Part shown: positions 2,749-47,931 of the stretch, piece by piece
Position numbering within the stretch: position 1 is the first letter of the stretch
How the letters are laid out: every line of letters starts with the position of its first letter
Translations under genes and position numbers: made by a program
DNA from: Escherichia phage EJP2
Direction: 5' to 3' (one strand)
DNA length: 64,000 nucleotides
Sequence record: OQ411014.1
Notes under the pieces: generated by a model
What the model was told of the DNA's origin: nothing
The model's input: only the letters and a program-made list of their open reading frames with translations
The model's database searches: none

Positions 2749-2788
2749 CATTACAGTACTGTTCAAGATTTTCTAATAAGGATTATAT

Positions 2789-3391
2789 ATGACTTGTATT
2801 ATCGCTTTTACTGATGGTAAATCATCCTTCATCGCAGGTGACAAACTAGGTTCCAACGGCTTTACTAAATCAGTAATGGTTGAACCAAAAGTCTTTGAGA
2901 AAGAGTTTCATCGTGTTAGTACCAATGATGAAGGTACTGTGCGGACGCGTGAAACGATGGCACTCGGTTATACTACGTCATTTCGTATGGGACAACTTCT
3001 GTCTTACAATCTAGTACTGCCTGACCAAGATGCGAATCAATCCTTCAGTCAGTACCTGGTTCAGAAAGTAATTCCACTTATTCGTCATATGTTCAAAGAT
3101 GAATGGGGTGCACGTGATAGCTCACAAGATATTGGTGGTGGTCAGTTCATTATTCTGCATAACCACACTATCTACGAAGTTCAAGGTGACTTCTCAGTAC
3201 TGCAACCTAAGACACAAATTACTGCTGTAGGTTCAGGTACTTACCATGCAATTGCAGCTATGCAAGCACTACAAAGTGTTTCATCTGATACTAAGAAAGA
3301 TCTACTACATTACGTACCAACGATTTTTGATATTGTCAGTACTAATGTAACTTCAGTATCTGCTGAACATGATGTATTGCATTACAAATAA
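2789..3391 (+). CDS. HslV/proteasome-like Ntn-hydrolase peptidase
   Basis: N-terminus MTCIIAFTDGKSSFIAGD parallels HslV MTTIVSVRRNGHVVIAGD (Thr after Met); AVGSGTYHAIAAMQAL parallels HslV IGSGGPYAQAAARAL. Confidence 0.5.
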   Translation: MTCIIAFTDGKSSFIAGDKLGSNGFTKSVMVEPKVFEKEFHRVSTNDEGTVRTRETMALGYTTSFRMGQLLSYNLVLPDQDANQSFSQYLVQKVIPLIRHMFKDEWGARDSSQDIGGGQFIILHNHTIYEVQGDFSVLQPKTQITAVGSGTYHAIAAMQALQSVSSDTKKDLLHYVPTIFDIVSTNVTSVSAEHDVLHYK

Positions 3392-3582
3392 TGGTTGATA
3401 TATTTTTCATTGTAATGATGATGCTTGGTGTATTCGGGTTGATTGCAATTACCCGAATCACTGATAGACCATACACAGATAACATTGAACGCGTTTGTAT
3501 GTTTCTACTAAGTACTATAATGTTGGTTATCGTTGGTGTAGTAGGTTCTATGTTTGCAGAACTAATTCTAATTGCGTACTGA
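3391..3582 (+). CDS. small membrane protein
   Basis: 63-aa hydrophobic ORF, start overlaps upstream stop. Confidence 0.3.
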   Translation: MVDIFFIVMMMLGVFGLIAITRITDRPYTDNIERVCMFLLSTIMLVIVGVVGSMFAELILIAY

Positions 3583-3605
3583 TGTACGCTTTTTAAGGAG
3601 TACTT

Positions 3606-3839
3606 ATGGACTTAGCAGATTTGGTTTATGTTGTATCGTTAGTACTGTACGGTATTTGTATAGTACTGACTATGTTAGAATGGAGTACTTGGAGTGATGG
3701 TTTCAAAGAACTAAATGGTGAGTTTACCTCTAAATACTATGCAATTAGTTATTTTATCATGAAGTTAGGTATGATTGGAATGTATGGTATTTTGGGATAT
3801 CTATTCTACTTCTTACCTGAACATATGAGATTATTTTAG
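3606..3839 (+). CDS. small membrane protein
   Basis: 77-aa ORF with ggag RBS; hydrophobic segments. Confidence 0.35.
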   Translation: MDLADLVYVVSLVLYGICIVLTMLEWSTWSDGFKELNGEFTSKYYAISYFIMKLGMIGMYGILGYLFYFLPEHMRLF

Positions 3840-3849
3840 GAGATATAAA

Positions 3850-4281
3850 ATGGCAGGAAAAGGATATTGCAGCCTAAAACTTGATAAAGCACAAGCAAAG
3901 GAATTGAAACGGATTTTAAAAATCGGTGGCGTTGAATGCTTAGACCCTTCGGATTTGCATTGTACTTTAATGTACGATGAAAGTAATCCTAACATCAAAA
4001 TGCTCAAGAACACAAAGACTTATAAAGCTAAAGTAACTGGTGTTAGTAAATTGGGTGATGCGATTGTATTGGATTTGGAATCCCCTGGCATCAAGAAACG
4101 TCATCAGGAATTGAAGAATGCTGGTTATAAGCACTCATTCCCTGAATTGAAAATTCATATGAGCATCAACTACGATCCAAAAAGTACTGATAAGGATTTA
4201 CTAGAACTCTTTATCAAATTGAAGGGTATTCCTTCAGTACTGATATTTGGTAATGAAAAATTTGAATCTCTAAAGCCGTAA
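3850..4281 (+). CDS. 2H phosphoesterase-family protein (LigT/Acb1-like fold)
   Basis: two H-x-T/S-x motifs (HCTL near residue 37, HMSI near residue 113) at the spacing typical of 2H phosphoesterases; 143 aa. Confidence 0.5.
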   Translation: MAGKGYCSLKLDKAQAKELKRILKIGGVECLDPSDLHCTLMYDESNPNIKMLKNTKTYKAKVTGVSKLGDAIVLDLESPGIKKRHQELKNAGYKHSFPELKIHMSINYDPKSTDKDLLELFIKLKGIPSVLIFGNEKFESLKP

Positions 4282-4291
4282 GGAGTATATA

Positions 4292-5050
4292 ATGGACGTG
4301 AATAAATTTCTTGACAACAAAGGACAAAAGCGTCTGTTAGTACTAACTGGTGCGGGTTTCAGTGCGGAATCTGGAGTTAGTACATTTCGTGATGCAGAAG
4401 ATGCCCTATGGGAAGGTGTGAAGATTAACGATGTATGTAACATTGCGAGCTTAGGCTTTAAGTACGCACAAGTACATGCATTCTACAACACACTAAGAAC
4501 TATCATCAAGGACAAAGAGCCTAACGAAGCACACTATGAAATTAGCGTTATGGAGTCAATGTACGGGGATAACTTCCTACACATGACTGCTAATATCGAT
4601 GATTTATATGAGCGTGCTGGTGGCACTGCTATGCACCTTCATGGCAACATCAAAGAAGTCATTGAGAACTATTCAATGGCACATAACGACTTTACAGTAC
4701 TGGATGTTGGATATGAAGTTTATATTCCAAAGGAAGGTGTATTTGCTAAACCTAATGTAGTATTCATTGGTGAATCAGAGCGTTATGTGAATAACCAGCG
4801 TATTCCGTTGTATGAAGAACGAAATAAAGTACTGGCATCCTTGACAGACTTAGATACCGTTGTTATCATTGGTTCATCGGATACAATCCTGAAGTGGAGT
4901 TCGTTGGTTGGTTTAGGCACACCAGCTTATACCATCAACATCAACACAAGAAAGAATGACACTGACTGGGCGTTCGATAAGAAGATTTACAAGCCAGTAA
5001 CTAAAGCGTTATTGGAATTGAGGGAGTTAGTTCTTACACGGATGGGATAG
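4292..5050 (+). CDS. Sir2-family protein lacking the zinc ribbon
   Basis: GAGFSAESGVSTFR, TANIDDLYERAGG, HLHG, PNVVFIGES, VVIIGSS match sirtuin core motifs; no CxxC pairs after the HG motif. Confidence 0.7.
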   Translation: MDVNKFLDNKGQKRLLVLTGAGFSAESGVSTFRDAEDALWEGVKINDVCNIASLGFKYAQVHAFYNTLRTIIKDKEPNEAHYEISVMESMYGDNFLHMTANIDDLYERAGGTAMHLHGNIKEVIENYSMAHNDFTVLDVGYEVYIPKEGVFAKPNVVFIGESERYVNNQRIPLYEERNKVLASLTDLDTVVIIGSSDTILKWSSLVGLGTPAYTININTRKNDTDWAFDKKIYKPVTKALLELRELVLTRMG

Positions 5051-5059
5051 GAGTGAGTT

Positions 5060-5614
5060 ATGGATTTTACAGAGATACCATTCGGACAACGCAGTGAAAG
5101 ATTTGACTGTGCGTTCGTTTGGATCTACGCTAAGAATTGCACACCATACAAGGATTATCCATATAATGATATTCCTAACGTATCTTTAGTACTGACAGAG
5201 TTACGCTTTGATGGTCTAATGGGTGCGGTTGGTGGAGCAGTTGAGGATGATGATCCTTCATTGGAAGTGGCAGTGCAACGTGAAGCCTTAGAGGAAATAA
5301 ACTTTTCTCTTGACATTACTAATCTGAAACCGTTATTATCATTACGTTCCCCATACGGAGCACATAACCATAGTTTCTCGTACGAAGTACAGTACGATGA
5401 GCTACTAGAGATTCGGAACAACGCATACAAAGGTGCTCACTTCAGTGCTGAAAATGCGGGTGTAAATCTGATTCACGTATGTCGCTATACGAAGGGAAGA
5501 GGGAACGAATGTGGTTACAATAACATTCTTACACAGAATTTTATTGGCACATCCAAACTGGAACTAGAGCGTTTAGTTCATAATGAAAATTTACTAATAA
5601 ATTACCTTGCATAA
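5060..5614 (+). CDS. Nudix-like hydrolase (imperfect Nudix box)
   Basis: GGAVEDDDPSLEVAVQREALEEINF contains REALEE with altered spacing from the canonical Nudix box. Confidence 0.45.
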   Translation: MDFTEIPFGQRSERFDCAFVWIYAKNCTPYKDYPYNDIPNVSLVLTELRFDGLMGAVGGAVEDDDPSLEVAVQREALEEINFSLDITNLKPLLSLRSPYGAHNHSFSYEVQYDELLEIRNNAYKGAHFSAENAGVNLIHVCRYTKGRGNECGYNNILTQNFIGTSKLELERLVHNENLLINYLA

Positions 5615-5624
5615 AGGATAAAAT

Positions 5625-5957
5625 ATGTATAAGATGTTTATAGACGACCTTCGGGATGCAGAGAAGCATTACCCAAATGAAGGATTCATCGTCACAAGGA
5701 CTTACAATGAAGCTGTACAGTACGTACAAGAACATGGTCTACCTAGTTTTGTTTCATTCGACCATGACTTGGGCGACACTGACAGTACTGATGAGAAGAC
5801 TGGATATTCTTTTGCTAAGTTCCTCATCGAGTACATGATTGATAACGATTTGCGGGAACCGTTTGAGTACTTTATTCACAGTGCTAATCCAGTTGGTGCA
5901 GAGAATATCAAACAGTACTTGCAAAATGGGTTCAACTTTATCCAAGGGCAAGCATGA
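5625..5957 (+). CDS. hypothetical protein
   Basis: 110-aa ORF with aaggat RBS. Confidence 0.45.
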   Translation: MYKMFIDDLRDAEKHYPNEGFIVTRTYNEAVQYVQEHGLPSFVSFDHDLGDTDSTDEKTGYSFAKFLIEYMIDNDLREPFEYFIHSANPVGAENIKQYLQNGFNFIQGQA

Positions 5958-6269: not shown

Positions 6270-7724
6270 ATGAAAAAATATGCTATTGATACAAACGTAC
6301 TTCTAAGCGATCCAAACGCAGCAACCGCTTTCAAAGGTGCTACAGTGGTTCTACCATTTACAGTACTGGAAGAAATGGACTCCATCAAGAGTCGTGGTGT
6401 TGACGTTAGCCGTGATGCACGTGTAGCAATTCGCAATATCAGTAACATCCTGGAAGACGCGTCTCATGAAGAGATTAGTACTACTGGGGTTGATATGTCC
6501 AAACTACATCCACATTTAGATTCCGACAGTCGTCTAATGATTGTTACATCTGAAGAAGCTGAAGCACTTCTACGTGTTGCAGGTATTGATAAGTCCGATG
6601 CTGAACTTACAAAAGTTGCTACACTAATGAACAGTACTGTACCGGATGACAAGATTATTCTTGTTGCTCTAGCTACAGAATCAGTACTGGTTACTCGTGA
6701 TATCAACATGCGTATCAAAGCTATGGCTTATGGTGTTGAAGTTCAGGACTATCGTAGTGATGTTACTATTTCCGATTCTGACCTACTACATATTGGGAAC
6801 CACAAACTAGAGTTTTCGTTCTGGGATACCATTGCGGATCGTGGTTTAGAAGTTTTCAGTACTAAAGAAGGTCGTAACACTTATCAACTAATTGCTAAAG
6901 ATGCAATTCAGGATCTACTACCAGAAAATCTATGCGTTGGTGACTATCTATATGATGACACTGATTTGCTAATGGTATATGATGGAGAAGGTGATCGTGA
7001 GTTCTCTGATGGTGAAGTTGATGACACAGTGTACTCCGTGTTCATTGATGTTGGTCAACACAGTGCAATGCGTACTAAGATTTGGGATATCAAAGCTAAG
7101 AACGTGAAACAAGCAATGGCAATCAACAGTATTCTTGACCCTAATGTTCACTTGACAGTACTGTTAGGTTCTGCGGGTACAGGTAAGACTTTGATTACTC
7201 TAGCATGTGCACTAGAACTAACATTAGAGAAGCGTCAGTACGATAAAGTTATTTTCTCTAAAACCCAAGACTCACAGTTTGATGAAATTGGTTTCTTACC
7301 AGGAACCGAAATGGAAAAAATGCTTCCGAATTGTGGACCTGCACTGGATGCATTGGAATTCCTTCACAAAGATGATGCTAACCCTCAAGGTTCAATTGAA
7401 GAAATCATCAAACGTAATGTTGTACAATTCAAAGCACTGAACTTTATTCGTGGACGTTCGTTTACCAATACAATTCTAGTTGTTGATGAATTCCAAAACA
7501 TTACTCCGGCTCAAGCTAAAACTATCTTGACACGGGCAGGAATGAACTGTAAAGTTATCATCATGGGTAACTTAGCACAGATTGATAGTAAGTTTATCAG
7601 TTCTGTAAACAGCGGTTTGACCTATGTAGTTGAGAAGTTCAAAGATTGGGAAGGTTGTCGTATCATCGAACTCGAAGGTGTTGTACGTTCTGCACTAGCT
7701 GAATTCGCTGAAGAAAATATGTAA
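6270..7724 (+). CDS. phoH: PIN-domain / PhoH-like ATPase fusion
   Basis: N-terminal YAIDTNVLLSDP (PIN-like); Walker A LLGSAGTGKT; Walker B-like VVDEFQNI. Confidence 0.8.
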   Translation: MKKYAIDTNVLLSDPNAATAFKGATVVLPFTVLEEMDSIKSRGVDVSRDARVAIRNISNILEDASHEEISTTGVDMSKLHPHLDSDSRLMIVTSEEAEALLRVAGIDKSDAELTKVATLMNSTVPDDKIILVALATESVLVTRDINMRIKAMAYGVEVQDYRSDVTISDSDLLHIGNHKLEFSFWDTIADRGLEVFSTKEGRNTYQLIAKDAIQDLLPENLCVGDYLYDDTDLLMVYDGEGDREFSDGEVDDTVYSVFIDVGQHSAMRTKIWDIKAKNVKQAMAINSILDPNVHLTVLLGSAGTGKTLITLACALELTLEKRQYDKVIFSKTQDSQFDEIGFLPGTEMEKMLPNCGPALDALEFLHKDDANPQGSIEEIIKRNVVQFKALNFIRGRSFTNTILVVDEFQNITPAQAKTILTRAGMNCKVIIMGNLAQIDSKFISSVNSGLTYVVEKFKDWEGCRIIELEGVVRSALAEFAEENM

Positions 7725-9119: not shown

Positions 9120-9410
9120 ATGCAATACAGACCACTATACGACCATGTTCTTGCTAAACAGATTGTTCATGAAGCTAAGAGTTCTTTTGGTATCATCCTG
9201 AACAGTACTGGTGTAGAAGAGACAACTACTGCTACTGTTGTTGCAGTTGGTACTGGGTCGAAGAATAGCCTAGGGAAAGTTATTCCAGTTGGTGTAAACG
9301 TAGGTGATGTGGTATCATTCAGTCCTGATGCTGCTGTTCATCGTGTTACACTAGATGGTACTGAATATCTTGTTATGCGTAAAGATTGCATCTTAGGCGT
9401 ACAGGAATAA
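9120..9410 (+). CDS. GroES-like co-chaperonin (Cpn10)
   Basis: RPLYDHVLAK, AVGTG, VNVGDVV, ILGVQE align with E. coli GroES RPLHDRVIVK, AVGNG, VKVGDIV, ILAIVE. Confidence 0.75.
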   Translation: MQYRPLYDHVLAKQIVHEAKSSFGIILNSTGVEETTTATVVAVGTGSKNSLGKVIPVGVNVGDVVSFSPDAAVHRVTLDGTEYLVMRKDCILGVQE

Positions 9411-16881: not shown

Positions 16882-19581
16882 ATGACTAAAAGAATTTATG
16901 GAGGCTTAGACGTTACTCATAACGTAACAGTTCAGGGCAAAAGGACAGTACAAGGTATCAATAATCAAGTATTCGATGCGAATGGTGATATGAAGATTAA
17001 TACCTATACTCAACAGGAATTACTCGATATTGTTAGCTTAATGCCAATATCACACTACGGTACTCACAACTACTTACCTGCTGGTGTTAGTGGGGACTTT
17101 AATGGTGCAGCGGAGAACCCAGCACAACGTAGAAACAAAATCCTACTGGAGAACGATGGTACACTAGTAATGCTACGTGCTGGTACAAACGGCAGTGTAG
17201 AAGGTTTATTCTATGCTTACCTACCAAATGCACTATCAGTTACTGATTTAGGTAGAGGTGTAAACACTGGTCGTCAGTACAAGCCAGGTTATTTTGGTAG
17301 TACTAAAACTGCTTTCGGTTTGTATAATACAGATGAGAACATTCTTCTAGGAAGATATTCTGATTCGTCAAATGGCAGTACTGGATGGTTTATTTCCATT
17401 ACTAACGGAACACTAGATGACACACAACATAATGGTTTCTTCTTGAATGCTTATACTGATATTGCCCCTCAAGGTGGTGTTGAATATGCAATGATGGCAG
17501 AAGATGGTTCAATTTACGTATTCAGTGTAGATACAAGTAATAACGAATTTAATATTGCAGTTGTTAGAGTTACTTTCAATTTGACGAATAAAACTTACAC
17601 AGCGTCAAGAATCACTGGTTGGACAACCAAGACGTTCTATAATACTACATATTCAGCAGATACTAATATTGTAGTGACGAAGAAAGTAAACTCAACTAAT
17701 ATCGCTGATAAGCCATATATGTACGTTCCGAATGGACTACTTGGTTTAGGTGTATACATGACGTCAATTGACTTGTGTGTAGCACAACAGCCAGGTACAC
17801 AGAACTTCCGCTTTAGAGTTAATGGTGATGCGTGGGCTACTATGGCAACGTATAATACCAGACCACAGCACAGTTATAGTTTCAACTTCAATATGAGTAC
17901 TAAACAATGTACGCTGGATGCAGGGAATGACATTGGTTCAAACGCAGCACCATTTATTGTTACTAATACAGGTTCACAATTAATTGCTTCTGGTAACGTA
18001 ATCAACCAAGATGATTTATATAATCACGGTGGGTGGAGAAACATTTATAGTTCTTACTATTACTTGGATATTGGTACAGTATTCTGTACTACGAGTCCTA
18101 ACTTGTCAGAACCATTGGGGATTGAAAAAGCAACATACCCAGCACAAAGTGTTTACAGTATGCTTAACGTAAGAGCAGTCAATGCATCAGCATTCAATAA
18201 AGGGAATCTTGGTCCTTCGTTCGGTTCAGCAGTTGGTTCTTACATTAACGGCGTAGAATTACTACCAGGTAACAGTACTAAACAATTCTCTCGTTCTTCT
18301 GGTACTGGTGCATTTAGACCATCATATGCAGTACATGCTGCTTCACCTACCTTTACGTTTAAATCTCTTTCAAGAGGTACAATGAAAGGTTATGAGCCTA
18401 CTGCTGAACGTGATTTCATTACAGATAATATAAACAACCGTATTTTCATTAGTACTGTATCTGGTTCGAATGTTACGACAAATGGTGGGATTTTCATGGT
18501 TGGTCAACGTTATTCACAGTCTTTGTCATTTGACAAACATGGTGTTGGTACTGGAACAATCTCGGTCACTGATTCAGTACTGGTAAATTTCAGAAATTCT
18601 GAATATGCAAAAGTACCTGCTTCATGGAATCTTTCTACAGCAGCAACTAAAGATATGACACTATTTGTTCCACAACAAACTGATATTCCTGCTTTTGTAA
18701 TGTTAAGTACTGTTACTACTGGAAATAAAAACTATATTAAGATTGTGGAAGTGAACGTTAATACCAGAAGTGGTAATATTACTTCAATTAGTTTTAAGCG
18801 TAATGTAATTGAAAACGTTTATGGTGATAGTTTTACACCAAATGGTGCTGGTGGTTTTGCTTCATCTTCTGTAGGTTTAACAATATATGATGGCGGTTCG
18901 TTCTACTTTATTGGTGGTTCAGATCCTTTATCTCACCCAACAATTGGCAATACGAATACACATCAATTCAGAGCTATTGTTACTAAAAGTACTGCACAAT
19001 TTGACAGCTTTATTATTTCAGGTTCACATGCTAGTTATGAACAGGGTATTCAACCTGCTGCTCTTCCTGGTATTGGCTTTGGGTATTTCCAAGCAATTGA
19101 CTACTCAAACAAAATGACATTCCAGAAATGTGGTACTACTGTTGCTGAATATAATGCATGGACAGCAATTGGTGATCCAATTAACGTAGTTTCACAAGAC
19201 GTTGCACAAGGATTTGTTGTTTACTTCAACGAAGAAACACCAGTAATGCTCAGTGGTAAGTCATTTACGATGCCAGTTCAAAGTGTTGATTTGAAAACTA
19301 TTAAAGCTAACCCAGCGAATACGACATTCCACATTTATGTGAGAATGAACCAAGGTAATGCAGAATATCATATAACTACTGAAGTTATTTCCGAAACTGG
19401 TAGTACTGCATATAACGTATTCTGGATTGGTACTGTTACTACGGATGCTATCCAAATCTCGACTATTAATGTATTCAAGCGTTCTCGTTTGGATGTATTT
19501 GGTGCATCACTTGAACCAACCGGATCATCATTCCCAGTGAGTTATGGTCTACCATCAGGCAACGGAACAATTAACTGGTAA
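16882..19581 (+). CDS. putative tail fibre / receptor-binding protein (paralog A)
   Basis: 899 aa, S/T/G/N-rich; N-terminal similarity to 20188 ORF; shared C-terminal motif ending GTINW. Confidence 0.5.
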   Translation: MTKRIYGGLDVTHNVTVQGKRTVQGINNQVFDANGDMKINTYTQQELLDIVSLMPISHYGTHNYLPAGVSGDFNGAAENPAQRRNKILLENDGTLVMLRAGTNGSVEGLFYAYLPNALSVTDLGRGVNTGRQYKPGYFGSTKTAFGLYNTDENILLGRYSDSSNGSTGWFISITNGTLDDTQHNGFFLNAYTDIAPQGGVEYAMMAEDGSIYVFSVDTSNNEFNIAVVRVTFNLTNKTYTASRITGWTTKTFYNTTYSADTNIVVTKKVNSTNIADKPYMYVPNGLLGLGVYMTSIDLCVAQQPGTQNFRFRVNGDAWATMATYNTRPQHSYSFNFNMSTKQCTLDAGNDIGSNAAPFIVTNTGSQLIASGNVINQDDLYNHGGWRNIYSSYYYLDIGTVFCTTSPNLSEPLGIEKATYPAQSVYSMLNVRAVNASAFNKGNLGPSFGSAVGSYINGVELLPGNSTKQFSRSSGTGAFRPSYAVHAASPTFTFKSLSRGTMKGYEPTAERDFITDNINNRIFISTVSGSNVTTNGGIFMVGQRYSQSLSFDKHGVGTGTISVTDSVLVNFRNSEYAKVPASWNLSTAATKDMTLFVPQQTDIPAFVMLSTVTTGNKNYIKIVEVNVNTRSGNITSISFKRNVIENVYGDSFTPNGAGGFASSSVGLTIYDGGSFYFIGGSDPLSHPTIGNTNTHQFRAIVTKSTAQFDSFIISGSHASYEQGIQPAALPGIGFGYFQAIDYSNKMTFQKCGTTVAEYNAWTAIGDPINVVSQDVAQGFVVYFNEETPVMLSGKSFTMPVQSVDLKTIKANPANTTFHIYVRMNQGNAEYHITTEVISETGSTAYNVFWIGTVTTDAIQISTINVFKRSRLDVFGASLEPTGSSFPVSYGLPSGNGTINW

Positions 19582-20187: not shown

Positions 20188-22941
20188 ATGTCATCTAAAA
20201 GAGTAATAGGTTCAGTTGAGTTTTTAAGTAACTTAGCTGTAAATGGGAAATACGCAATGCGTTCCTTTAATGGTGTCAATCCAGATGCCAATACTGGTAT
20301 AATCACTTATCCATTTTATACCAGAGAAGAAGTTCAGAAGATTCTCGATATACTCCCTGTTTCACGTATAGGTGAAATGGACTATCTACCACCGAACGTA
20401 AGTGGTTCCTTTAGTGGAGCTACTTCATTCTCGAATGATCGCAGAGTTCAGCCATGTATTATTGAAGATGATGGTACAGCCGTAATTATTCGCCCTGGTA
20501 CGAATGGTAGTCAGTTTGATTTTTATTATGCTTACATCCGTAACGTCAGAAATATCCCAACTCTAACACAAAGTGATATTGTTCAGACGAATACCAGATA
20601 TCACCCATCATATCTTACTAGTACTCAAAAGATTGAACAATTTTACGGTACTGATGGATATGATCTTCTTTGGTACAGAGTTTCTGACTCAGTTAATAGT
20701 TCAAACTATTTTGCAATTACATTAACTAACGGTTCCTTTAACGTAGTAGGTCACCAACATGCTCTTATTCCACAAACATCTATGCCTAATTTCACACCAG
20801 CATATGCTCATATCGTGAATGGTTCAGTATACATGTGGGGCTATGACAGTACTTTAGGTTCAGGTAGAGCATTGAAGTTATACACTATCCCAACTAGTTC
20901 GTTGCGTTCTGGTGTTACTACTGGTTTAACTGCTGTCACTGGATTTAATGGAAAAACTATCAACGGTAATGCTTATACAGCAGCCAGTACTGCTAGGATT
21001 TATGATACATATGCAAGTACTACCAGTACTGCTGATTGCTTAATTCAATACACGTCTAACATGTATTCTCCTGAATATCACGACTACGCCATCTCCAATG
21101 CAATGGCGGCTGGTAATGCTGATAATACACAGATTCGTTTCACTATGTTCCCTACATATCGTTACGGTTCTGCGTATGGTTTTAGTGGTATATTCATGTA
21201 CGCAATTAGTTTAGTCTATAATATCAGTACTAAAACATTTACGTACGATACTACATCTTTAGGTAAAATTGTGGTGAATGCTACACTAAATGGTTCTACA
21301 ATGACCTATACAGAAACTGCTAACCCATATTTGGTTGATGCAACTTCATGGCGTGGTTTTGGTGCAAGTCTAGGTAACTGTGGAACAATCTGTCAAGCAG
21401 GTGATGGTTTCATGGTGAGTACTCGCTCTCGTTGGGCAAGTTCTGCTCCTTACGGTGTCAGTACTTCTAAGATTAATAACTTTACTTCTCAATTCGATTC
21501 TATTAAAATGACTGGTAGAAGTGTTACTGCAAATACTCAACTATTTGCTAACCCAATCTACGGTTCTGCAATTGGTGAGAACTTGATGGGTCCACGTCTG
21601 TTAAGTAAAACTCGTATGATTCTTGCATGTTCAGGTACATACGATGGTGTATCCAACGCAAGCTATGACAATACTGTAGTTGCGGACTTCGGTACTGATT
21701 CGAACTTCTCATACAAGTCAATGACTCAAGGTACACTTACTGGGTATGCACCACAAACGTATCGTAAATTCGCTAATAATGACAACTTCAGACTATCAGA
21801 ATTAGTAACACTAATGGACAGTACTGGTAATGTTCAAGCAAGTAGTACTGCATTCATCGAGAACGTTAAGTACACTGGTGGGATTGGTATTAACCCTGAT
21901 ACACTTGAATACACTGGCAGTACTGTTAATATGTCCAATGCAGTTATCCAATCACTTAAACAAGGTATTGCAACTTCTGCTGGTATTCCATTGAATACAA
22001 GTTTGCTTACAGTGTATTACATTCCTGATACATCATATTGCAATCACCAAGCAGTACTAATGGTTCGTAATCCTGATAACACTGGCGTTGTAGTACTAGC
22101 TGAAATGAATTTAACTACAAGTACTTCTGGAAGTACAATTACTGTTACTGGTGGTTCTGTAATAAGAACTTTCGTTCAGAACAGACCAAATATTACTTCA
22201 GTAAATGGTGGGAACTACGCTCGTAACGTTGGTGTTTGTGCTGGTAAATTCAGTGGTTTTAATTACCTTAGTGTTCACTCAGCGAATAACTTTGGTGTTC
22301 CTGGTGATGCAAGGTCTTATTCGTTCTTTGCAAAAGTTAAGGGTGGTGCTATAGTATCACAGAGAATCGATGAGTCCTATTATTCACAGACATATGGCAG
22401 GACTGGTGGTTTCCTACCAGGGAAAGGTTTCGGTTATTATGATAACTCAGTGAGTGATTACCAGACCAAATCCGTGTTCCAACTCTTCGGTACTACTGAA
22501 GCACAGATGGATGCACTAATTGCTGGTACTGGAACATCAACACCTGTTGTTGTTATGTCTCAAGAAGTTCCTGAAGGTTTTAGTGTTTACTTTACACAAG
22601 AACTACCAGTATTCTTAGGTGGTATGTACGATAAGCTACCAATCCAGACAGTTGATTTGAGAACTATCAAAGCTGATCCATCCAATACTACTTTCTATAT
22701 CTACGTATCAATGGATAGAAGTAAAGGTGAAGCATCATACGTTATCAGTACTGCACTCTTGGATGAAACTCTAACCAGAGCATTCATTGGTACTATTGTG
22801 ACTATTGATGCAGGTATTGACCGGATTGATGCAGAGAAGGTAACACGCTTCTTGACTTACAGACCAAGTACTTACAAGAGGGGTTCTGCAATCCCTGCGA
22901 GTACTGGTGTTCCATCTGGGACTGGTTCACGCTGGCATTAA
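20188..22941 (+). CDS. putative tail fibre / receptor-binding protein (paralog B)
   Basis: 917 aa; N-terminal region YTREEVQKILDILPVSRIGEMDYLPPNVSGSFSGA parallels the 16882 ORF; C-terminus RPSTYKRGSAIPASTGVPSGTGSRWH. Confidence 0.5.
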   Translation: MSSKRVIGSVEFLSNLAVNGKYAMRSFNGVNPDANTGIITYPFYTREEVQKILDILPVSRIGEMDYLPPNVSGSFSGATSFSNDRRVQPCIIEDDGTAVIIRPGTNGSQFDFYYAYIRNVRNIPTLTQSDIVQTNTRYHPSYLTSTQKIEQFYGTDGYDLLWYRVSDSVNSSNYFAITLTNGSFNVVGHQHALIPQTSMPNFTPAYAHIVNGSVYMWGYDSTLGSGRALKLYTIPTSSLRSGVTTGLTAVTGFNGKTINGNAYTAASTARIYDTYASTTSTADCLIQYTSNMYSPEYHDYAISNAMAAGNADNTQIRFTMFPTYRYGSAYGFSGIFMYAISLVYNISTKTFTYDTTSLGKIVVNATLNGSTMTYTETANPYLVDATSWRGFGASLGNCGTICQAGDGFMVSTRSRWASSAPYGVSTSKINNFTSQFDSIKMTGRSVTANTQLFANPIYGSAIGENLMGPRLLSKTRMILACSGTYDGVSNASYDNTVVADFGTDSNFSYKSMTQGTLTGYAPQTYRKFANNDNFRLSELVTLMDSTGNVQASSTAFIENVKYTGGIGINPDTLEYTGSTVNMSNAVIQSLKQGIATSAGIPLNTSLLTVYYIPDTSYCNHQAVLMVRNPDNTGVVVLAEMNLTTSTSGSTITVTGGSVIRTFVQNRPNITSVNGGNYARNVGVCAGKFSGFNYLSVHSANNFGVPGDARSYSFFAKVKGGAIVSQRIDESYYSQTYGRTGGFLPGKGFGYYDNSVSDYQTKSVFQLFGTTEAQMDALIAGTGTSTPVVVMSQEVPEGFSVYFTQELPVFLGGMYDKLPIQTVDLRTIKADPSNTTFYIYVSMDRSKGEASYVISTALLDETLTRAFIGTIVTIDAGIDRIDAEKVTRFLTYRPSTYKRGSAIPASTGVPSGTGSRWH

Positions 22942-23333: not shown

Positions 23334-23721
23334 AATATATGACATCATTAAAACTCTTAAAACTTGTAAGAGAGTAACATTATCTGAAAAAGTTTACTGC
23401 GGTTTAAATGATAAAAAGTGTATCATGTTCGATTGTATAGATGATGGTGAATCCAGCATTAGTATTGCTAGTCCTAAGAATCCTAATGGTGATTTTATCT
23501 TCTGTACAGTTACTGATGAACTTGAATTTGTACTCGTCAAGAGTGATGGTGCACAATCTGAAATCTTAGACTTGAGTACTGAAGATAGATTCTTTCAACG
23601 AAGTTTACTCTTTGACTTATCATTAACCTATGATGAGTATCAATCAGTACTTCATAATTTCAACAAATTTTATAACGGACTAATCAGTACTGTTATAATC
23701 TATTCAACCGAGGTCATATAA
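23320..23721 (+). CDS. hypothetical protein
   Basis: 133-aa ORF overlapping neighbours by a few nt. Confidence 0.45.
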   Translation: MQEHKIYDIIKTLKTCKRVTLSEKVYCGLNDKKCIMFDCIDDGESSISIASPKNPNGDFIFCTVTDELEFVLVKSDGAQSEILDLSTEDRFFQRSLLFDLSLTYDEYQSVLHNFNKFYNGLISTVIIYSTEVI

Positions 23722-24968
23722 TGTCAAAAAATATGCTCGAAAATATCATCGTAAAACACTACGCTGGTAGTATCGCTTATGGTACAAATACTCCCTTATC
23801 AGATGTTGATTTCCGTGGAATCTTTATGGCTCCAAAGGAATTCATCTTGTCTCCGTTCGTAAACGTAGGGGAAGCATCTGATTCAAAAGAAGAAGATACT
23901 AAATTCTACGAACTCAATAAGTTCATGAAACTAAATGTCGATGCGAACCCGAATATCCTCGAAACACTATGGGTCGATGATGAACACATCGTTGAAAGTA
24001 CTGAAATGTACCAACATCTTCGCAAGCACAGAAGTGAACTACTAAGTAATAAGATTGCATTTACTTATACTGGATTCGCATATAACCAAGTTCACCGCAT
24101 GAGCAACCATAATGGCTGGATGGATAAAGAGAGAATTGCTGAACGCAGACTCAATGAAATCATCGAAAAACATCCTTGTATTGAAGTGAAAGAGTGGATG
24201 TACGAATATTTCCCTCATTATGTCATTGACCGGATTGACTTCTCTAATGTAAAAGGTTATAGTGATGATGTTGATTTGGACTTGGATAAGTTCTTGCGTG
24301 ATAGTTCTCTGCAACTGATCAGTACTAAATCCTTAGCACAGCATCACTTCGTGCGTTTAGTACATAATTACTTACCACAGAAAGTACTTGACCGTGATTT
24401 CAACTTAGCTCATTTCAATACGAATCATGAACTAATTCACTACGGTGATAATATCTTTGCAGTAGTTCCAACTCAGGGGAAATCGAAAGTACTTTCAGTA
24501 CATAACGATTTAGTTTGGGATTCAAAGAAAGAACGTACTCCTGAAGAACTAAAAGTACTTCCATCTTTGATTGTGAAATTCAATCGCAAAGAATATGAAG
24601 AACTGAATGATAAACGCAAGCACTATCACAAGTGGAAAGAGAACCGTAACAGTATTCGTGCTGAACTGGAGTCAAAGAATGGCTTCGATACTAAGCACGC
24701 AATGCACGTGGTTCGTTTATTACGTACAGCAAAAGAAGCACTGTTGACTGGTGTCATCAACGTCAAACGTCCTGATGCGGAAGAATTACTTGCAATCCGT
24801 AATGGTGCTTGGACATATGAAGAAATGATGAAGTACTTTGAATCTGAATCTAAATTAGTAATGAACTTAGGTAAAACATCAAAAGTACTTCCATCGTCCC
24901 CAAACCGTAAACTAGCAACTCAATTAGTACTAGACTTACGTGAGATGCATTGGAAACAAGGAAAATAA
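23721..24968 (+). CDS. Pol-beta superfamily nucleotidyltransferase (PF10127-like)
   Basis: N-terminal AGSIAYGTNTPLSDVDFRGIF matches the GS...G...SDxDxRG signature; 415 aa. Confidence 0.5.
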   Translation: MSKNMLENIIVKHYAGSIAYGTNTPLSDVDFRGIFMAPKEFILSPFVNVGEASDSKEEDTKFYELNKFMKLNVDANPNILETLWVDDEHIVESTEMYQHLRKHRSELLSNKIAFTYTGFAYNQVHRMSNHNGWMDKERIAERRLNEIIEKHPCIEVKEWMYEYFPHYVIDRIDFSNVKGYSDDVDLDLDKFLRDSSLQLISTKSLAQHHFVRLVHNYLPQKVLDRDFNLAHFNTNHELIHYGDNIFAVVPTQGKSKVLSVHNDLVWDSKKERTPEELKVLPSLIVKFNRKEYEELNDKRKHYHKWKENRNSIRAELESKNGFDTKHAMHVVRLLRTAKEALLTGVINVKRPDAEELLAIRNGAWTYEEMMKYFESESKLVMNLGKTSKVLPSSPNRKLATQLVLDLREMHWKQGK

Positions 24969-33441: not shown

Positions 33442-34071
33442 ATGACAACTCACGTTAGGTATTATATTGCATATAATGGAAGACCAGTTCGTTCTATTGG
33501 ATTAGATCTTGAGCCAGTAATGTCTGTACAGACTAATCTATACTTCAGTACTGAAGAAGAAGCAGACTCTTTCATTATGACTAGGATTGCAACTGCGTCC
33601 ACTACACTTTATCATATTCATTTTGATTGTATTGATAAGTACTCAATCGTCAAAGAAATTGTTCAGTTGGAACCGTGCAGTACTAAAACTAATTATATGC
33701 GAAACTATACTCTAACTTGGTTGCGATTACTCGACCAGGATATCTGTACTGATTCTATGATTTCCACTACTATACGTGCGTTCGTCATGCGTGGGTTTAG
33801 TACATCAGGATTGGATTTAGAAGAAGTGAAAAACTTGATTTTGGGTAATCCAAAACTTCAAAAAACCATTGACAAACTTATTCCAAAGCATATAATCTCT
33901 AATATTGAAAATTACATGCAAGATGGTTTAGTCAATGCTCCGGTGGAAGAGCTTGAATTCTTGAATCTAACAATTTCAGATGAAATGAAATTTGATCTTG
34001 ACTTCGAAGAACTCTTCCCTTACAATAAGTTCAAACCAACAAAATGGGAAAATCATGGAACTAGTAACTGA
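33442..34071 (+). CDS. hypothetical protein
   Basis: 209-aa ORF. Confidence 0.45.
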   Translation: MTTHVRYYIAYNGRPVRSIGLDLEPVMSVQTNLYFSTEEEADSFIMTRIATASTTLYHIHFDCIDKYSIVKEIVQLEPCSTKTNYMRNYTLTWLRLLDQDICTDSMISTTIRAFVMRGFSTSGLDLEEVKNLILGNPKLQKTIDKLIPKHIISNIENYMQDGLVNAPVEELEFLNLTISDEMKFDLDFEELFPYNKFKPTKWENHGTSN

Positions 34072-35308
34072 AGGTCGCAAACTCGTAACAATTCGTAAAA
34101 TCAATGCAATTGATGCAATTGAAGGTGCAGATCTGATTGTCAAAGCAACTGTTGACGGTTGGGATGTAGTTGTGAAGAAAGATGAATTCAACGTTGGGGA
34201 TTACTGTGTATTCTTCGAAATCGATTCATTCCTTCCAGTACAGACACCACAATTCGCATTCTTGGCGGGTTCAGGCTGTAAACTCGATGAACAGAATGTA
34301 GAACGTTTCCGTCTACGTACTCGTAAACTTCGCGGGGTAGTCTCTCAAGGCTTGGCTCTACCAGTATCTCTATTTGAGGCAGTACTGGAAGCTATTGACG
34401 AAGCTGGTGGTCATCACCCTGACTCGTACACTACAACGGCACGTGAAGAACTCCTAGTGAGTCTAGAGGCGAATCGTGAAGGCATTGAGCAATTCCTCAA
34501 TGTAACCAAATACGAGCGTCCTGATGAGCGTAATGGCGGTACTGGTGCATCTAAGTGCAAAGCTGCTGGTAACTTCCCTATCGTCATTCCTAAGACTGAT
34601 GAAGACCGTATTCAGAACGTAATGGGTAAGTACTCTCAGACTATGAAAGGTGTTGCATTCCGTAAATCACTGAAACTGGATGGTTCTAGCCAGACAATTG
34701 CATTCATTAGCAATCCTGATTTCTTTGTAGATAAAGTTGATGAAGAAGTCCGTGCATGGAATGAAGAGACTCAAGAACTTGAAGTTGTTGAAGTGAAGCC
34801 ATACCCGTTCCAATGGGAAGATGGTCAGGTAGCAGTATGTTCTCGCAATCTTGCGTTGAAATTTGATGCTGAATCTCACTTCTGGAAAGCAGCACTGAAA
34901 GATGATATTCCAGCACGTCTGAAAGAGTACTGTGTTCGTAATGACCGCCAACTAGCACTACAAGGCGAAGTAATGGGTCCTGGTATCCAAGGGAACCGTG
35001 AAGAACTGACCGAACATCAATTCTACGTATTCCGTATTTGGGATATTGATAATAAATGTTTCCTTGATGATGGTGATTTCTTGACACTATCTGCACTACT
35101 GGGATTGACTACAGTACCGCAAGGTGATATCGTGTACTTCTTCGATGAATACACTTCTATCAAAGAAGCATTGGCATCTGCTGACCACGCATCTATCAAG
35201 CATAAGATCGCGGAAGGCGATGTGTTCAAAAGTGTATCTAAAGTGAATGGTGTTACTGTACACTTCAAGGTAATCAACAACAAATTCTTGCTCAAATGTG
35301 AGGACTAA
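34055..35308 (+). CDS. ATP-dependent RNA ligase-like nucleotidyltransferase
   Basis: start set at ATG 34055; candidate motif I lysine in SLKLDGSS (KxDG) about 170 aa from the N-terminus, preceded by an N-terminal domain. Confidence 0.5.
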   Translation: MELVTEGRKLVTIRKINAIDAIEGADLIVKATVDGWDVVVKKDEFNVGDYCVFFEIDSFLPVQTPQFAFLAGSGCKLDEQNVERFRLRTRKLRGVVSQGLALPVSLFEAVLEAIDEAGGHHPDSYTTTAREELLVSLEANREGIEQFLNVTKYERPDERNGGTGASKCKAAGNFPIVIPKTDEDRIQNVMGKYSQTMKGVAFRKSLKLDGSSQTIAFISNPDFFVDKVDEEVRAWNEETQELEVVEVKPYPFQWEDGQVAVCSRNLALKFDAESHFWKAALKDDIPARLKEYCVRNDRQLALQGEVMGPGIQGNREELTEHQFYVFRIWDIDNKCFLDDGDFLTLSALLGLTTVPQGDIVYFFDEYTSIKEALASADHASIKHKIAEGDVFKSVSKVNGVTVHFKVINNKFLLKCED

Positions 35309-39891: not shown

Positions 39892-41001
39892 ATGAAAAAG
39901 TATTTGGTTGGTGGTTTTGTACGCGATAAGCTACTTGGCTTACGTCCTAAAGACAAAGATTATGTCTTGGTAGGAGCGACCCCGCGTGATATTCAGTACT
40001 TAAAAAGTATTGGATATGAGCAGGTTGGTGCAGACTTCCCTGTGTTCTTGGATAAGGACGGCAATGAGCACGCACTTGCCCGTACTGAACGCAAGGTGTC
40101 TGATGGCTATAATGGCTTTGAAGTGAATACACAAGGTGTAACGCTTCAGGAAGACTTGTATCGTCGTGATTTGACCATCAATGCGATTGCCTTTGACCCA
40201 CAGTTAAAGGTACACGTAGACCCATATGGTGGCAAAGAAGACCTAAAGAACAAAGTACTGCGACATGTATCTGAACATTTTGAAGAAGATCCAGTACGTA
40301 TTCTGCGTATCGCTCGTTTCAGTGCACGTTATTCGGACTTTACAGTACATGAAAGTACTGAATCGTTGATTCGCCGTATGATCAATCGTGGCGATATTTC
40401 TGAATTGACTAAAGAGCGAGTGTACGTAGAATTCGAGAAAGCATTCTCCGAAGAAGAGCCAGTTATCTTCCTGGAGAAGCTATCCAAATGGGGAGCCATG
40501 AGTAAGTTGATTCCTGGTAATCCTGAAAGTACTTACAAGACTATTGAATACATTAGTTCCAATTGTACTTTAGCGTATAAGGATTTTTACTTGTGGGCTG
40601 AACTAATTGGTTCTAATGAAGTACAAAAAGATGGAGTCTTTGGTCAGGTCAAGCTACCATCGCGTTACTCTAAGTTCAGTGCGTATGTATGCAAGCACGC
40701 GGATAGTATCAAGAATTTCCGTAAGAGCACCCCAGAAGAAATGGTAAATATTCTTACTGAGATGAGCGTAAAGAACAACGGTGGTGAAGAGTACTTGTAC
40801 AAAGTACTGGAATACTTTATCCTACGTAAAGAGATTGATTTGGACTTAGAAGATTTGATTATTCGAGTTTATGATCGCTTTGAGAATACGGTCATTGGTA
40901 ATATTGATCAGATGCTTAAAGATGGAACTATCACTTCACGTGAAATTCCTTCTTTTGTGAAAGAGAAGCGAATCGCTGAGGTGGAAAAAATCTTCAAATA
41001 A
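39892..41001 (+). CDS. CCA-adding tRNA nucleotidyltransferase / poly(A) polymerase family
   Basis: GGFVRDKLLG, DKDYV and RRDLTINA head-domain motifs; 369 aa. Confidence 0.8.
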   Translation: MKKYLVGGFVRDKLLGLRPKDKDYVLVGATPRDIQYLKSIGYEQVGADFPVFLDKDGNEHALARTERKVSDGYNGFEVNTQGVTLQEDLYRRDLTINAIAFDPQLKVHVDPYGGKEDLKNKVLRHVSEHFEEDPVRILRIARFSARYSDFTVHESTESLIRRMINRGDISELTKERVYVEFEKAFSEEEPVIFLEKLSKWGAMSKLIPGNPESTYKTIEYISSNCTLAYKDFYLWAELIGSNEVQKDGVFGQVKLPSRYSKFSAYVCKHADSIKNFRKSTPEEMVNILTEMSVKNNGGEEYLYKVLEYFILRKEIDLDLEDLIIRVYDRFENTVIGNIDQMLKDGTITSREIPSFVKEKRIAEVEKIFK

Positions 41002-45285: not shown

Positions 45286-47931
45286 ATGGCTGATCTATTA
45301 TCACCAGGTGTAAGTGTAACAGTCACTGATGAGTCAATGAGCGGTGCTTCTGCTCCAGGGACTGTCCCACTTATCATCATTGCAACTGCACAAGACAAAT
45401 TGGTTCCAGGCAGCACATCTGTTGCACCAGGGACTCTCAAAGCGAACGCTGGTAAACTACAGCTACTAACTTCACAAAAAAATGCCCTTGACGTATTCGG
45501 GACACCTATTTTTCAGAAACATTTAGGTTCAGTAGTTCAAGGCGACGAATTAAACGAATACGGCTTACATGCTGCTTATTCATATTTGGGAATTGCAAAC
45601 CGTGCTTATGTAGTACGTGCTGACATCGACCTAGCACAGCTAGCACCAACTGGTACTGCACCAACTGGCCCTGTTACCAACGGTAAACTATGGTTAGATA
45701 CTACTGCAAGTCAAGTTGAAGCATATGTTGCTAAGAAAGATGACCCACAATCATTCTACGACTGGCAACTAAAACCAGTACGCATCGTTAGTGCGGCTGA
45801 TATTGCTGATGTTGATACTATTGGTCTAAACGTTGATGACCTAGTACTACGTTACAACCCAGCGAATGGTCAACTACTAATGTACAAATTTTCTGCTGCT
45901 GGTCTAGTTCAAGTTGAAACTTACCTATCACCAATCAACAAAGTACCATCAGGTATTGAATACAATGAAGGTGATATTTGGATTCGTGATGGTTTCACTA
46001 AATCTGGTTCTAACTACTTCGGTACTCGTTTTGTTATTAAACGTTATGCTTCTCTAACTCGCGTATGGCAGAATGTTGATACCTTTACTGGTACAAGTTT
46101 CTATGAAATTGAATCTAAAACTGGTGTAATGTCGTCTTCTTACATCACTGCACTATTCGATTATGATAGTAATAGTTTCTCCTTCTATATGCAACGTGCT
46201 TCATTACCTACCGTTACCGCTGGTGCAGTTCCAGTTGGTCAATCTTCGGTAAACACTGCTGCTGTTGATGGTTTCTTAACTGTTAATTATCTAAATAAAT
46301 CCGTTAAAGTACTAGCAGTACTACAAGGTCAACTAATTAATGCTGCTGTTATCATTGAAAATTTGAATAAGAGTTCAGTACTAATTAACGCAGGTTTCAC
46401 ATTCACTGGAACACAAGATGTTGTCATTACTAACCGTAATGGATATAGTTTTAAAGTGAGTCAATCAGACGAAGTGATTTTTAGCCAACAAGAACTCAAG
46501 AAACTAACTCAAGATAGCAGTAACTATGCACTAGTTAACGTTAACAACCTAGTAACTTCAGCAACCGAACCACGTGCTGTTGCACCAGAAGGTACTTACT
46601 GGTATGACTTTAGTAACTCTGACAATCTTGAAGTAACTCTTTATACTGCTAATACCAGTACTGAAGATTGGGATCTAGTAATTGCTAGTGACAAGTACAT
46701 CCAAGTTGATGAACCTGCTGCTGACCGTTCTTTCTGGGTTCTACCACTATCTCAAGGTATTGATGGTTATGAGTTCTATCGTAACGTAAATGGTGAGTGG
46801 ATTAAACTAGATCCAGCAGACCAAAGTACTCTAAACGGTATGATTTACGAAGACTTCAATGACGAAGTACCAAGTGCTAACCTATACCAAAACGGTATGC
46901 TTGCAATTGACCTAGGCAATACTGAAGGTGTTGTTAAACAAATGGTTAATGGTAAGTGGGTAGTAGTAAGTGGTGTTGCTATTGATGGTTCTGGTCTATT
47001 TGGTCGTCATGCACAACGTCAAATGATTGTTGAAGCTATGGCATCTGTTATCGTTAGCAACGAAGCGATTCGTTCTGAGACTGTCGATTTCAACCTAGCG
47101 GTTGCTCCTGGTTATGTTGAACTACTAGATGAACTAGTAACTCTAAACACTGACCGTAAAGAAACATCTTTCTTGATTACTGATGTTCCAGCACGTTTGA
47201 AACCTTCCAGTACTGACGTACAAGAATGGGCTACTAACGCTAACAACGCTCCAAGTAACGGTGATATCGGTCGTGTAACTGCATACGATTACGCTGCACA
47301 ATACATGGGTTGGTGCTTAGGTACTAACGTTGATGGTGAAGAAGTTGCTATTCCTGGTTCTTCTGTTGCACTACGTACCTATGCGTACAGTGACAGTGTT
47401 TCTTATGTATGGTATCCACCAGCAGGTACTGCACGTGGTGTTGTTTCCAACGCTGCTTCAGTAGGCTTCATCAATGATGAAGGCGAATATGAGCCAGTAG
47501 TTTACAACCAAGGCCAACGTGATATCATGTATATCAACAAGATTAACCCGATTGCAATGCGTCCAAACCGTGGTCTACTAGTTTATGGTGATAAGACACT
47601 AACTGCGAACGAAACTTCAGCACTAGCGAACGTAAACGTAGCACGTCTAATCGTATACATTCGTCGTCAACTAGACATTCTTGCTGAACCATTCCTATTC
47701 CGTCTAAACACCCCAAGTACTCGTCAGGAGTTCGCTGGTGTAGTGAACAGCTTCCTAGCAGAAATCGTTCAACTAAATGGCCTATACGACTTTACTGTTG
47801 TGTGTGATGAATCAAACAACACCCCAACTCGTATTGACCGTACTGAACTATGGATGGATATTGCGATTCAACCAACTCGTACAATTAACTACATTTATGT
47901 ACCAATTCGTATCGAGAAAACTCAAGCATAA
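45286..47931 (+). CDS. tail sheath protein
   Basis: 881 aa; N-terminus ADLLSPGVSV and C-terminus IDRTELWMDIAIQPTRTINYIYV resemble the T4 gp18 termini as recalled; followed by tube genes. Confidence 0.8.
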   Translation: MADLLSPGVSVTVTDESMSGASAPGTVPLIIIATAQDKLVPGSTSVAPGTLKANAGKLQLLTSQKNALDVFGTPIFQKHLGSVVQGDELNEYGLHAAYSYLGIANRAYVVRADIDLAQLAPTGTAPTGPVTNGKLWLDTTASQVEAYVAKKDDPQSFYDWQLKPVRIVSAADIADVDTIGLNVDDLVLRYNPANGQLLMYKFSAAGLVQVETYLSPINKVPSGIEYNEGDIWIRDGFTKSGSNYFGTRFVIKRYASLTRVWQNVDTFTGTSFYEIESKTGVMSSSYITALFDYDSNSFSFYMQRASLPTVTAGAVPVGQSSVNTAAVDGFLTVNYLNKSVKVLAVLQGQLINAAVIIENLNKSSVLINAGFTFTGTQDVVITNRNGYSFKVSQSDEVIFSQQELKKLTQDSSNYALVNVNNLVTSATEPRAVAPEGTYWYDFSNSDNLEVTLYTANTSTEDWDLVIASDKYIQVDEPAADRSFWVLPLSQGIDGYEFYRNVNGEWIKLDPADQSTLNGMIYEDFNDEVPSANLYQNGMLAIDLGNTEGVVKQMVNGKWVVVSGVAIDGSGLFGRHAQRQMIVEAMASVIVSNEAIRSETVDFNLAVAPGYVELLDELVTLNTDRKETSFLITDVPARLKPSSTDVQEWATNANNAPSNGDIGRVTAYDYAAQYMGWCLGTNVDGEEVAIPGSSVALRTYAYSDSVSYVWYPPAGTARGVVSNAASVGFINDEGEYEPVVYNQGQRDIMYINKINPIAMRPNRGLLVYGDKTLTANETSALANVNVARLIVYIRRQLDILAEPFLFRLNTPSTRQEFAGVVNSFLAEIVQLNGLYDFTVVCDESNNTPTRIDRTELWMDIAIQPTRTINYIYVPIRIEKTQA

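Follow-up and report, generated by a model that had tools for sequence, protein, structure and literature searches.

The stretch of Escherichia phage EJP2 analysed here (sequence record OQ411014.1; 64,000 nucleotides, hereafter the window) carries at 2789..3391, on the plus strand, a gene of 200 codons that runs from an ATG to a stop at 3389-3391 and encodes a proteasome-like N-terminal nucleophile (Ntn) threonine peptidase of PHROG 1040, likely of the AAH group. Residue conservation leaves us in little doubt that the product is an active, catalytically competent threonine hydrolase of the proteasome type. With less assurance, our results favour the wider reading that it is an HslU-independent, self-assembling threonine peptidase from a compact, propeptide-free subfamily. 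A sequence-only reading had proposed a phage-encoded proteasome- or HslV-like Ntn hydrolase, had called it HslV-type and uncommon, and had suggested a profile or structure search against the proteasome and HslV families. It had also raised a possible action on host or phage proteins during takeover, which the present results neither favour nor oppose. The main yield of the present study is the re-identification of an already catalogued family and the correction of the label 'HslV' to that of a stand-alone proteasome homologue, probably independent of HslU.

Fold, active site and start of the phage peptidase

Profiles and structure were needed for the assignment since single-sequence searches were too weak. 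Alone, the peptidase retrieved nothing significant from Pfam, did not match PF00227 (Proteasome), and reached HslV only marginally in a phmmer search of the PDB (E 0.026). PF00227 was matched by 13 of 63 relatives (best E 2.4e-5), and two others scored 19.8 and 17.6 bits, under the 22.4-bit cut-off; this model is too narrow for a divergent subfamily, and it is the fold and the active site that carry the assignment. The PHROG 1040 profile ('peptidase HslV family') aligned with residues 1-161 over its positions 14-130 of 277 (E 9.3e-21, 75.6 bits), and T5-like and Aeromonas orthologues matched it too. With a profile based on an alignment of the 63 diverse relatives, the PDB search reached HslV over the full length (E 1.4e-9 to 1e-7) and, less strongly, BPH (1e-5) and proteasome beta5 (1.5e-4). 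Likewise, hhalign paired it with E. coli HslV at a probability of 97% (E 7.5e-11). The AlphaFold2 model computed from the same alignment (predicted local distance difference test, pLDDT, 94.7; predicted template modelling score, pTM, 0.90) displayed the expected order of strands and helices, with a predicted alpha-beta-beta-alpha Ntn fold in which helix pairs H1/H2 and H3/H4 surround a beta-sandwich. Foldseek agreed with a proteasome-like fold, the top structural match being BPH. The profile and structure searches thus confirmed a proteasome-like fold and bore out the proposal of a phage-encoded hydrolase of this kind.

The active site was retrieved residue by residue. In the hhalign comparison, Thr1, Asp17, Lys33, Gly45 and Ser124 of HslV corresponded to T2, D18, K34, G60 and S149 of the peptidase. 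Conservation was counted over 260 aligned relatives. The predicted N-terminal nucleophile T2 (codon 2792..2794, plus strand; mature Thr1) and the preceding M1 were present in 257 of them, and 253 proteins begin with MT. Asp18 (2840..2842, plus strand), equivalent to Asp17 of the proteasome and HslV, was conserved in 259, and Lys34 (2888..2890, plus strand), the Lys33 equivalent, in all 260. According to conservation and hhalign, the signature G60-YTTSFRMGQLL-71 (2966..3001, plus strand) comprises the oxyanion-hole glycine and the start of helix H1; G60 occurred in 258 relatives, T62 in 254, S64 in 259, R66 in 252 and Q69 in 255. Cys3 was near-invariant as well. The alignments further placed G148-S149-G150 (3230..3238, plus strand) on the G-S124-G segment of HslV and the Ser129 loop of the proteasome, with G148 in 260/260 and G150 in 259/260, position 149 being occupied by S (153), C (89) or A (13). 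The N-terminal and GSG motifs quoted in the sequence-only reading are all present in the open reading frame (ORF), as is the threonine directly after the initiator methionine, and the Asp/Lys/Gly/Ser set is complete.

No start codon further upstream is possible. An in-frame TAA at 2777-2779, three codons upstream of the ATG, overlaps an AAGGA ribosome-binding site read from the sequence (2778..2782, plus strand; 6 nucleotides 5' of the ATG), and these two elements fix the N-terminus and exclude an N-terminal extension or propeptide. The reading frame begins MTCIIAFTDGKSSFIAGDKLGSNG and includes the internal segment AVGSGTYHAIAAM. Its G+C content (0.38-0.40) is the same as that of the flanking DNA. 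A search of all six-frame ORFs of the window with the family hidden Markov model found this single gene, and neither a second copy nor an alpha-like partner.

A hairpin insertion, visible as gaps in the alignment, occupies about residues 38-55 (2900..2953, plus strand), between the Lys33 strand and the strand of the oxyanion glycine. The segment from K34 to G60 counts 27 residues in the peptidase; its length is 11 in 196 of the 260 relatives and 22-28 in 49, the peptidase included, and the carriers of the longer version identified in the alignment belong to the jumbo-phage clade. AlphaFold2 modelled the hairpin as strands 35-46 and 49-61 (pLDDT 97-98). Both of its ends lie at the active site, and in proteasome-like barrels this site is lumenal; the tip should thus project outside the barrel wall, an orientation drawn from the known architecture and not computed. 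If it does point outwards, the insertion would not stand in the way of ring assembly and might offer a surface for docking.

Family membership and separation from HslV

Among the 22 new proteasome homologues in the catalogue of Fuchs, Alva and Lupas (2021) are the phage-borne PPH, AAH and CPH, which the authors grouped with HslV and BPH in 'group I'; PPH was described as having ~140 amino acids and no H2, and AAH as occurring in Actinobacteria, Alphaproteobacteria and 'many phage genomes' (PMC8665760). The peptidase likely belongs to AAH, a placement made on architecture and distribution and not on clustering with its reference sequence WP_035979212. AAH fits and PPH is excluded because of helices H1-H4, the lack of a propeptide and of a C-terminal S12/H5, and the bacterial distribution. 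Like AAH (~180 amino acids), the peptidase displays the compact group I architecture, the family median being 186 amino acids over the 260 relatives, and keeps the equivalents of Thr1, Asp17, Lys33 and Gly47. AAH likewise occurs in Actinobacteria and Proteobacteria and in many phages, and is akin to HslV and BPH. Group I is described as 'without insertions', whereas the jumbo-phage clade has its hairpin insertion of ~16 residues. PPH shares with the peptidase the fact of being a phage-borne proteasome-like Ntn hydrolase, in the same PHROG. Membership of PPH was nevertheless rejected, the peptidase having 200 amino acids and an H2 modelled with high confidence at residues 86-106.

The distribution is of the AAH type, that group being most abundant in Actinobacteria and present also in Alphaproteobacteria, other phyla and many phages. 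Bacterial matches in the genome scan included Streptomyces, Actinoallomurus, the Actinoplanes group, Nocardiopsis, Gluconacetobacter, Neoroseomonas, Paraburkholderia, Polyangiaceae and Dehalococcoidia, a range spanning Actinomycetes, Alpha- and Betaproteobacteria, Myxococcota and Dehalococcoidia. The family amounted to 2,485 clusters at 50% identity with E<=1e-30 (9,020 with E<=1e-3); it was present in 196 of 50,697 deposited phage genomes (INPHARED) and on at least 592 IMG/VR contigs (one exact motif scan), and 32 BFVD structure representatives share the peptidase fold. The description of the gene as uncommon did not hold: the family is large, already catalogued (PHROG 1040; PMC8665760) and spread widely by phages. 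Its phage annotations vary from 'peptidase HslV family' and 'proteasome subunit' to 'threonine-type endopeptidase' and 'Ntn hydrolase-like'. Phage proteasome homologues thus make up thousands of sequence clusters and occur in hundreds of phage genomes, among them jumbo, T5-like and many uncultured phages. With its intact active site, the gene described here is a clean, typical example and a reasonable entry point for experiments. All that this locus adds is a surface insertion specific to its lineage and the suggestive, though unproven, setting next to anti-immunity genes, and for the question of function the locus alone is no more tractable than hundreds of others.

The strict designation HslV-type had to be given up. 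Both NCBIfam HslV equivalog models failed (TIGR03692, 23.7 bits against a cut-off of 157.75; NF003964, 25.8 against 137), with matches confined to the GSG region at residues 120-171; the top structural match was BPH; and no HslU-like gene was found among the neighbours examined. Identity to HslV, a dodecamer of two hexameric rings usually encoded next to its AAA+ partner HslU, was ~24% over aligned columns. HslV displays the sequence GFAGGTADAF, whereas the peptidase lacks four residues between the oxyanion glycine and H1 and carries the family signature instead. The basic pore residues R86, R89 and K90 of HslV (PMC5777263) aligned with E109, A112 and R113, in a loop whose alignment is of low confidence. 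The equivalent pore loop was net acidic in 218 of the 260 relatives, which is like BPH and unlike HslV. On these comparisons, the peptidase is not an HslV orthologue. BPH in turn (PDB 5OVS, 5OVU) was the best structural match, yet its sequence similarity was below that of HslV (profile E 1e-5). It also differs from the peptidase in its pore loop, described as elongated, and in its chromosomal location, in stress operons of Betaproteobacteria, as opposed to a phage genome. BPH is unfoldase-independent and has been shown to bind epoxomicin covalently (PMC5777263).

A search for an unfoldase partner pointed in the same direction as these differences. No AAA+ unfoldase was found among the neighbours of the peptidase gene in the window, nor did an AAA+ partner recur across 160 family loci (80 bacterial and 80 viral), judged by their ten commonest neighbour clusters. 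None of the commonest neighbour families recurred across taxa; the most frequent occurred at 12 of the 80 viral loci, and none of the neighbours identified is an ATPase unfoldase. Conserved neighbours at the 80 bacterial loci came down to antisense shadow ORFs and lineage-restricted genes, and were discarded. The only candidate ATPase of the window is a 443-amino-acid PHROG 1297 'ATPase' at 56449-57780, for which neither a Pfam nor a PDB sequence match was found. The family was common in Streptomyces and other Actinomycetes in the genome scan, and Table 1 of PMC8665760 records no HslV in their phylum, which argues that the family as a whole works without HslU.

Several relatives departed from the typical organization. 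Aeromonas phage 2L372D (4001-5454 of the locus analysed, L003) has a family member of 183 amino acids next to a second PHROG 1040 protein of 294 amino acids, which aligned with the family only around GSG (hhalign E 1.4e-5). This paralogue may be of PPH/RPC type, and the pair could represent a heteromeric or two-enzyme arrangement. Relatives of 309-388 amino acids (P0122, P0131, P0147, P0154, P0168, P0174, P0061 and P0072) displayed long, strongly acidic C-terminal extensions in which no Pfam domain was found. At myxobacterial loci (L007-L063, Polyangiaceae/Myxococcota), an Ala/Pro-rich protein of ~260-310 amino acids often adjoins the family member on the same strand, an association restricted to that lineage.

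Proposed mechanism and competing explanations

From what is established for T1 peptidases, host methionine aminopeptidase would remove Met1 and expose the threonine as residue 1. Its O-gamma, activated by a K34/D18 proton relay, would attack the scissile peptide bond. The backbone NH of G60 would provide the oxyanion hole, and the loop at S149 would hold the free amino group in position. On the model of BPH and HslV, the subunits would probably assemble into a homo-oligomeric double ring with inward active sites. Working without HslU or a dedicated unfoldase, such an enzyme would not be a general ATP-dependent protease, and would act on peptides, on unfolded chains or on a single specific target. 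That the GYTTSFRMGQ segment next to the active site is invariant argues for a substrate preference conserved in the family. In this scheme the removal of Met, the assembly of rings, the independence from HslU and a peptidase rather than another amidase activity are inferred.

Several points weigh against this reading. The word 'peptidase' is itself an extrapolation, because the substrates of BPH are not known (PMC5777263). Some contact with HslU may be possible since F65, the equivalent of HslV Phe54, is kept. The window covers 64 kb of a genome of ~350 kb, so that a phage-encoded partner could lie elsewhere. In the literature we found no experimental work on any family member or phage proteasome homologue; the published virion proteome of phAPEC6 makes no mention of the peptidase, and the phiR2-01 paper none of the orthologue g082.

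In one competing explanation the phage enzyme would hijack HslU, its HslV-like rings docking onto the host unfoldase and either redirecting ATP-dependent degradation to host or phage targets or titrating HslU away from host HslV. The presumed enterobacterial hosts of related phages encode HslU, and HslV is the nearest sequence relative in the PDB by both profile and hhalign, which counts in favour of this scenario. Of the pocket for the HslU C-tail, formed in E. coli/H. influenzae HslV by Phe54, Phe57, Gln114 and Lys80 (PMC6429459), F54 aligned with the conserved F65, in favour, but F57 with G68, again in a low-confidence loop alignment. Against it stand the failed equivalog models, the four-residue deletion before H1, pore residues not aligned with basic ones, a best structural match to the HslU-independent BPH (PMC5777263), and a family that thrives in Actinomycetes devoid of HslUV (PMC8665760, Table 1) as well as in phages infecting diverse hosts. 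We regard HslU hijacking as unlikely. A departure of another kind would be a connectase-like enzyme that is not a protease, namely a highly specific amidase, transpeptidase or ligase that, in monomeric or small oligomeric form, would act on one defined protein or on a small-molecule amide. Conservation of T62, S64, R66, Q69 and Cys3 far beyond that of general proteases suggests a single conserved substrate, and several of the new homologues may not form rings (PMC8665760). Weak matches to the Pfam connectase N-terminal domain, at E 0.067 for the peptidase and at E 0.003 for the best of 4 relatives among the 63, also count in its favour. We give this possibility a small chance.

Two further explanations start from the genes around the peptidase. 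It could be a counter-defence effector, the peptidase of an anti-immunity island, and during infection break down or process a protein of the host defences or a protein conjugate, a role compatible with the HslU-independent peptidase favoured above. Indeed, the gene lies between NAMPT and a series encoding Acb1, Sir2, a Nudt16-like Nudix and cREC; an NMNAT-Nudix gene located before NAMPT in near-identical contigs would complete an NAD+-reconstitution pair; and the order peptidase-Sir2-Nudix-cREC-PhoH is common to Asteriusvirus SHEFM2K. This association is limited to the jumbo-phage lineage, however, and the gene order of the window is explained by shared descent with Asteriusvirus. Other phages have other neighbours: the gene adjoins thymidylate synthase and RNase H in T5-like phages, lies among small genes of unknown function in phages of Vibrio, Psychrobacter and Moorella, and a clade of giant phages has HD, Thg1, PheRS and NAD+-ligase genes beside it; portal, terminase or tRNA-related genes occur near it in subsets of the 80 IMG/VR loci. 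Because the neighbours differ across phages, context provides no general functional clue. A terminator-like hairpin at 3574-3589 also separates the peptidase from Acb1, PADLOC returned no match for the peptidase or five neighbours, and family members stand alone in bacterial chromosomes. A counter-defence role thus appears improbable. A more specific form of it, in which an unfoldase-independent mini-proteasome in the NAMPT/NMNAT-Acb1-Sir2-Nudix island removes a host immune protein or conjugate, with the hairpin docking the target or an adaptor, is speculative and rather doubtful; if true, it would be the first function for any viral proteasome homologue and for the AAH family. Finally, about 25 of the 80 IMG/VR loci have the gene within 1-3 kb of portal or large terminase, as might a morphogenetic protease processing the prohead or virion proteins. 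Yet, in the window the gene lies among metabolic and accessory genes, more than 40 kb from the tail sheath (45286-47931) and a virion structural protein (52880-54358). SHEFM2K encodes its head maturation protease (phrog 94) in a gene of its own, small phages carry the gene upstream of terminase/portal and outside the portal-protease-scaffold-capsid position, and the bacterial chromosomal copies have no capsid context. Such a role is therefore very improbable.

Gene neighbourhood and phage relatives

At the protein level, the peptidase was 74-76% identical to counterparts in jumbo coliphages of the Asteriusvirus type and in Salmonella phages (such as PBECO4, G17 and SHEFM2K; genomes of 310-386 kb), whereas megablast of the window against deposited phages gave no match. 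The window comes from a jumbo phage akin to Asteriusvirus (PBECO4/G17 group), of a lineage absent from the phage collection searched; judging from the Escherichia and Salmonella phage relatives, its source is probably an enterobacterial jumbo phage. Its genes, which all lie on one strand, include those for a tail sheath, NrdD and RNA ligase along with further phage genes. Metagenome contigs (longest shown, 105 kb) encode an identical peptidase at ~99% DNA identity. The Asteriusvirus orthologue was also encountered on 103 contigs of up to 370,817 bp, many of them labelled Escherichia coli; complete jumbo-phage genomes appear to lie within bacterial assemblies.

Next to the peptidase, an ORF of 63 amino acids with two hydrophobic segments by hydropathy (3391..3582, plus strand) begins with an ATG that overlaps the peptidase stop (TAATG), which suggests translational coupling. 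The same arrangement was called in metagenome contigs L087-L089. Upstream, on the plus strand, are two genes of 212 amino acids (phrog_36508; 1896-2534) and 70 amino acids (hydrophobic; 2536-2748), which are probably co-transcribed. The hairpin at 3574..3589 (plus strand) is followed by a T-run and a second one lies at 1860-1879, both identified by consensus match only; ten terminator-like sites were counted in the window against 3.6 +/- 1.7 in shuffles. The two hairpins possibly enclose a four-gene unit composed of the 212-amino-acid, 70-amino-acid, peptidase and 63-amino-acid genes. The 212-amino-acid protein was rejected as an obligate partner, since it occurred in 10 phage records only and does not adjoin the peptidase in phage A4. 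The small hydrophobic ORFs flanking the peptidase were likewise rejected as a conserved module, as they had one weak SHEFM2K match, at a different position. A 'protease' located beside the SHEFM2K orthologue (phrog 26024) proved unrelated (hhalign probability 0.1%) and has no equivalent in the window.

Further out, the NAMPT gene (PF18127, PF04095) lies at 380-1852. A second small hydrophobic ORF (3606-3839) follows that of 63 amino acids and precedes the gene for Acb1 (anti-CBASS), a 2H-phosphoesterase of 143 amino acids at 3850-4281 that matched PF23474 at E 1.8e-17, above the gathering score; PHROGs labels the same gene 'RNA ligase' (phrog_755). Then come Sir2 (4292-5050), the Nudt16-like Nudix (5060-5614), cREC_REC, a cyclic-phosphate processing receiver domain (5625-5957), an ORF of 96 amino acids and, at 6270-7724, a PIN-PhoH fusion. 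The segment 12761-13318 encodes a protein with an AAA_28 domain (PF13521), and the bifunctional NMNAT-Nudix gene found 5' of NAMPT in the near-identical contigs is at 1001-2074 of L087. The NAMPT, NMNAT-Nudix and AAA_28 genes resemble a phage NAD+-reconstitution pathway, and the surroundings of the peptidase look like an NAD+-salvage and counter-defence island.

Two genes of the near-identical contigs are lacking in the window. A DUF723 gene of 306 amino acids is inserted between NAMPT and the 212-amino-acid ORF at 4185-5105 of L087 and L088, and is absent from the window (~1884-1906); a DUF723/CapR gene of 424 amino acids follows PhoH in L087 (10983-12257), and is absent too. These differences look like presence/absence polymorphism of mobile, homing-endonuclease-like genes. 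Another ORF of 96 amino acids, at 9120-9410, is a candidate phage co-chaperonin, differing at 2 of its 96 residues (~98% identical) from an L089 gene with a Pfam Cpn10 (GroES) match. Two paralogues of ~900 amino acids (16882-19581 and 20188-22941; phrog_3573, E 1e-246 and 1e-206) are separated by an ORF of 195 amino acids, and the one scanned against Pfam displayed no domain. No tRNA genes were found in the window, which carries an RNA/tRNA repair toolkit composed of a nucleotidyltransferase (phrog_388; 23721-24968), an RNA ligase (phrog_968; 33992-35308) and a tRNA nucleotidyltransferase (phrog_2244; 39892-41001).

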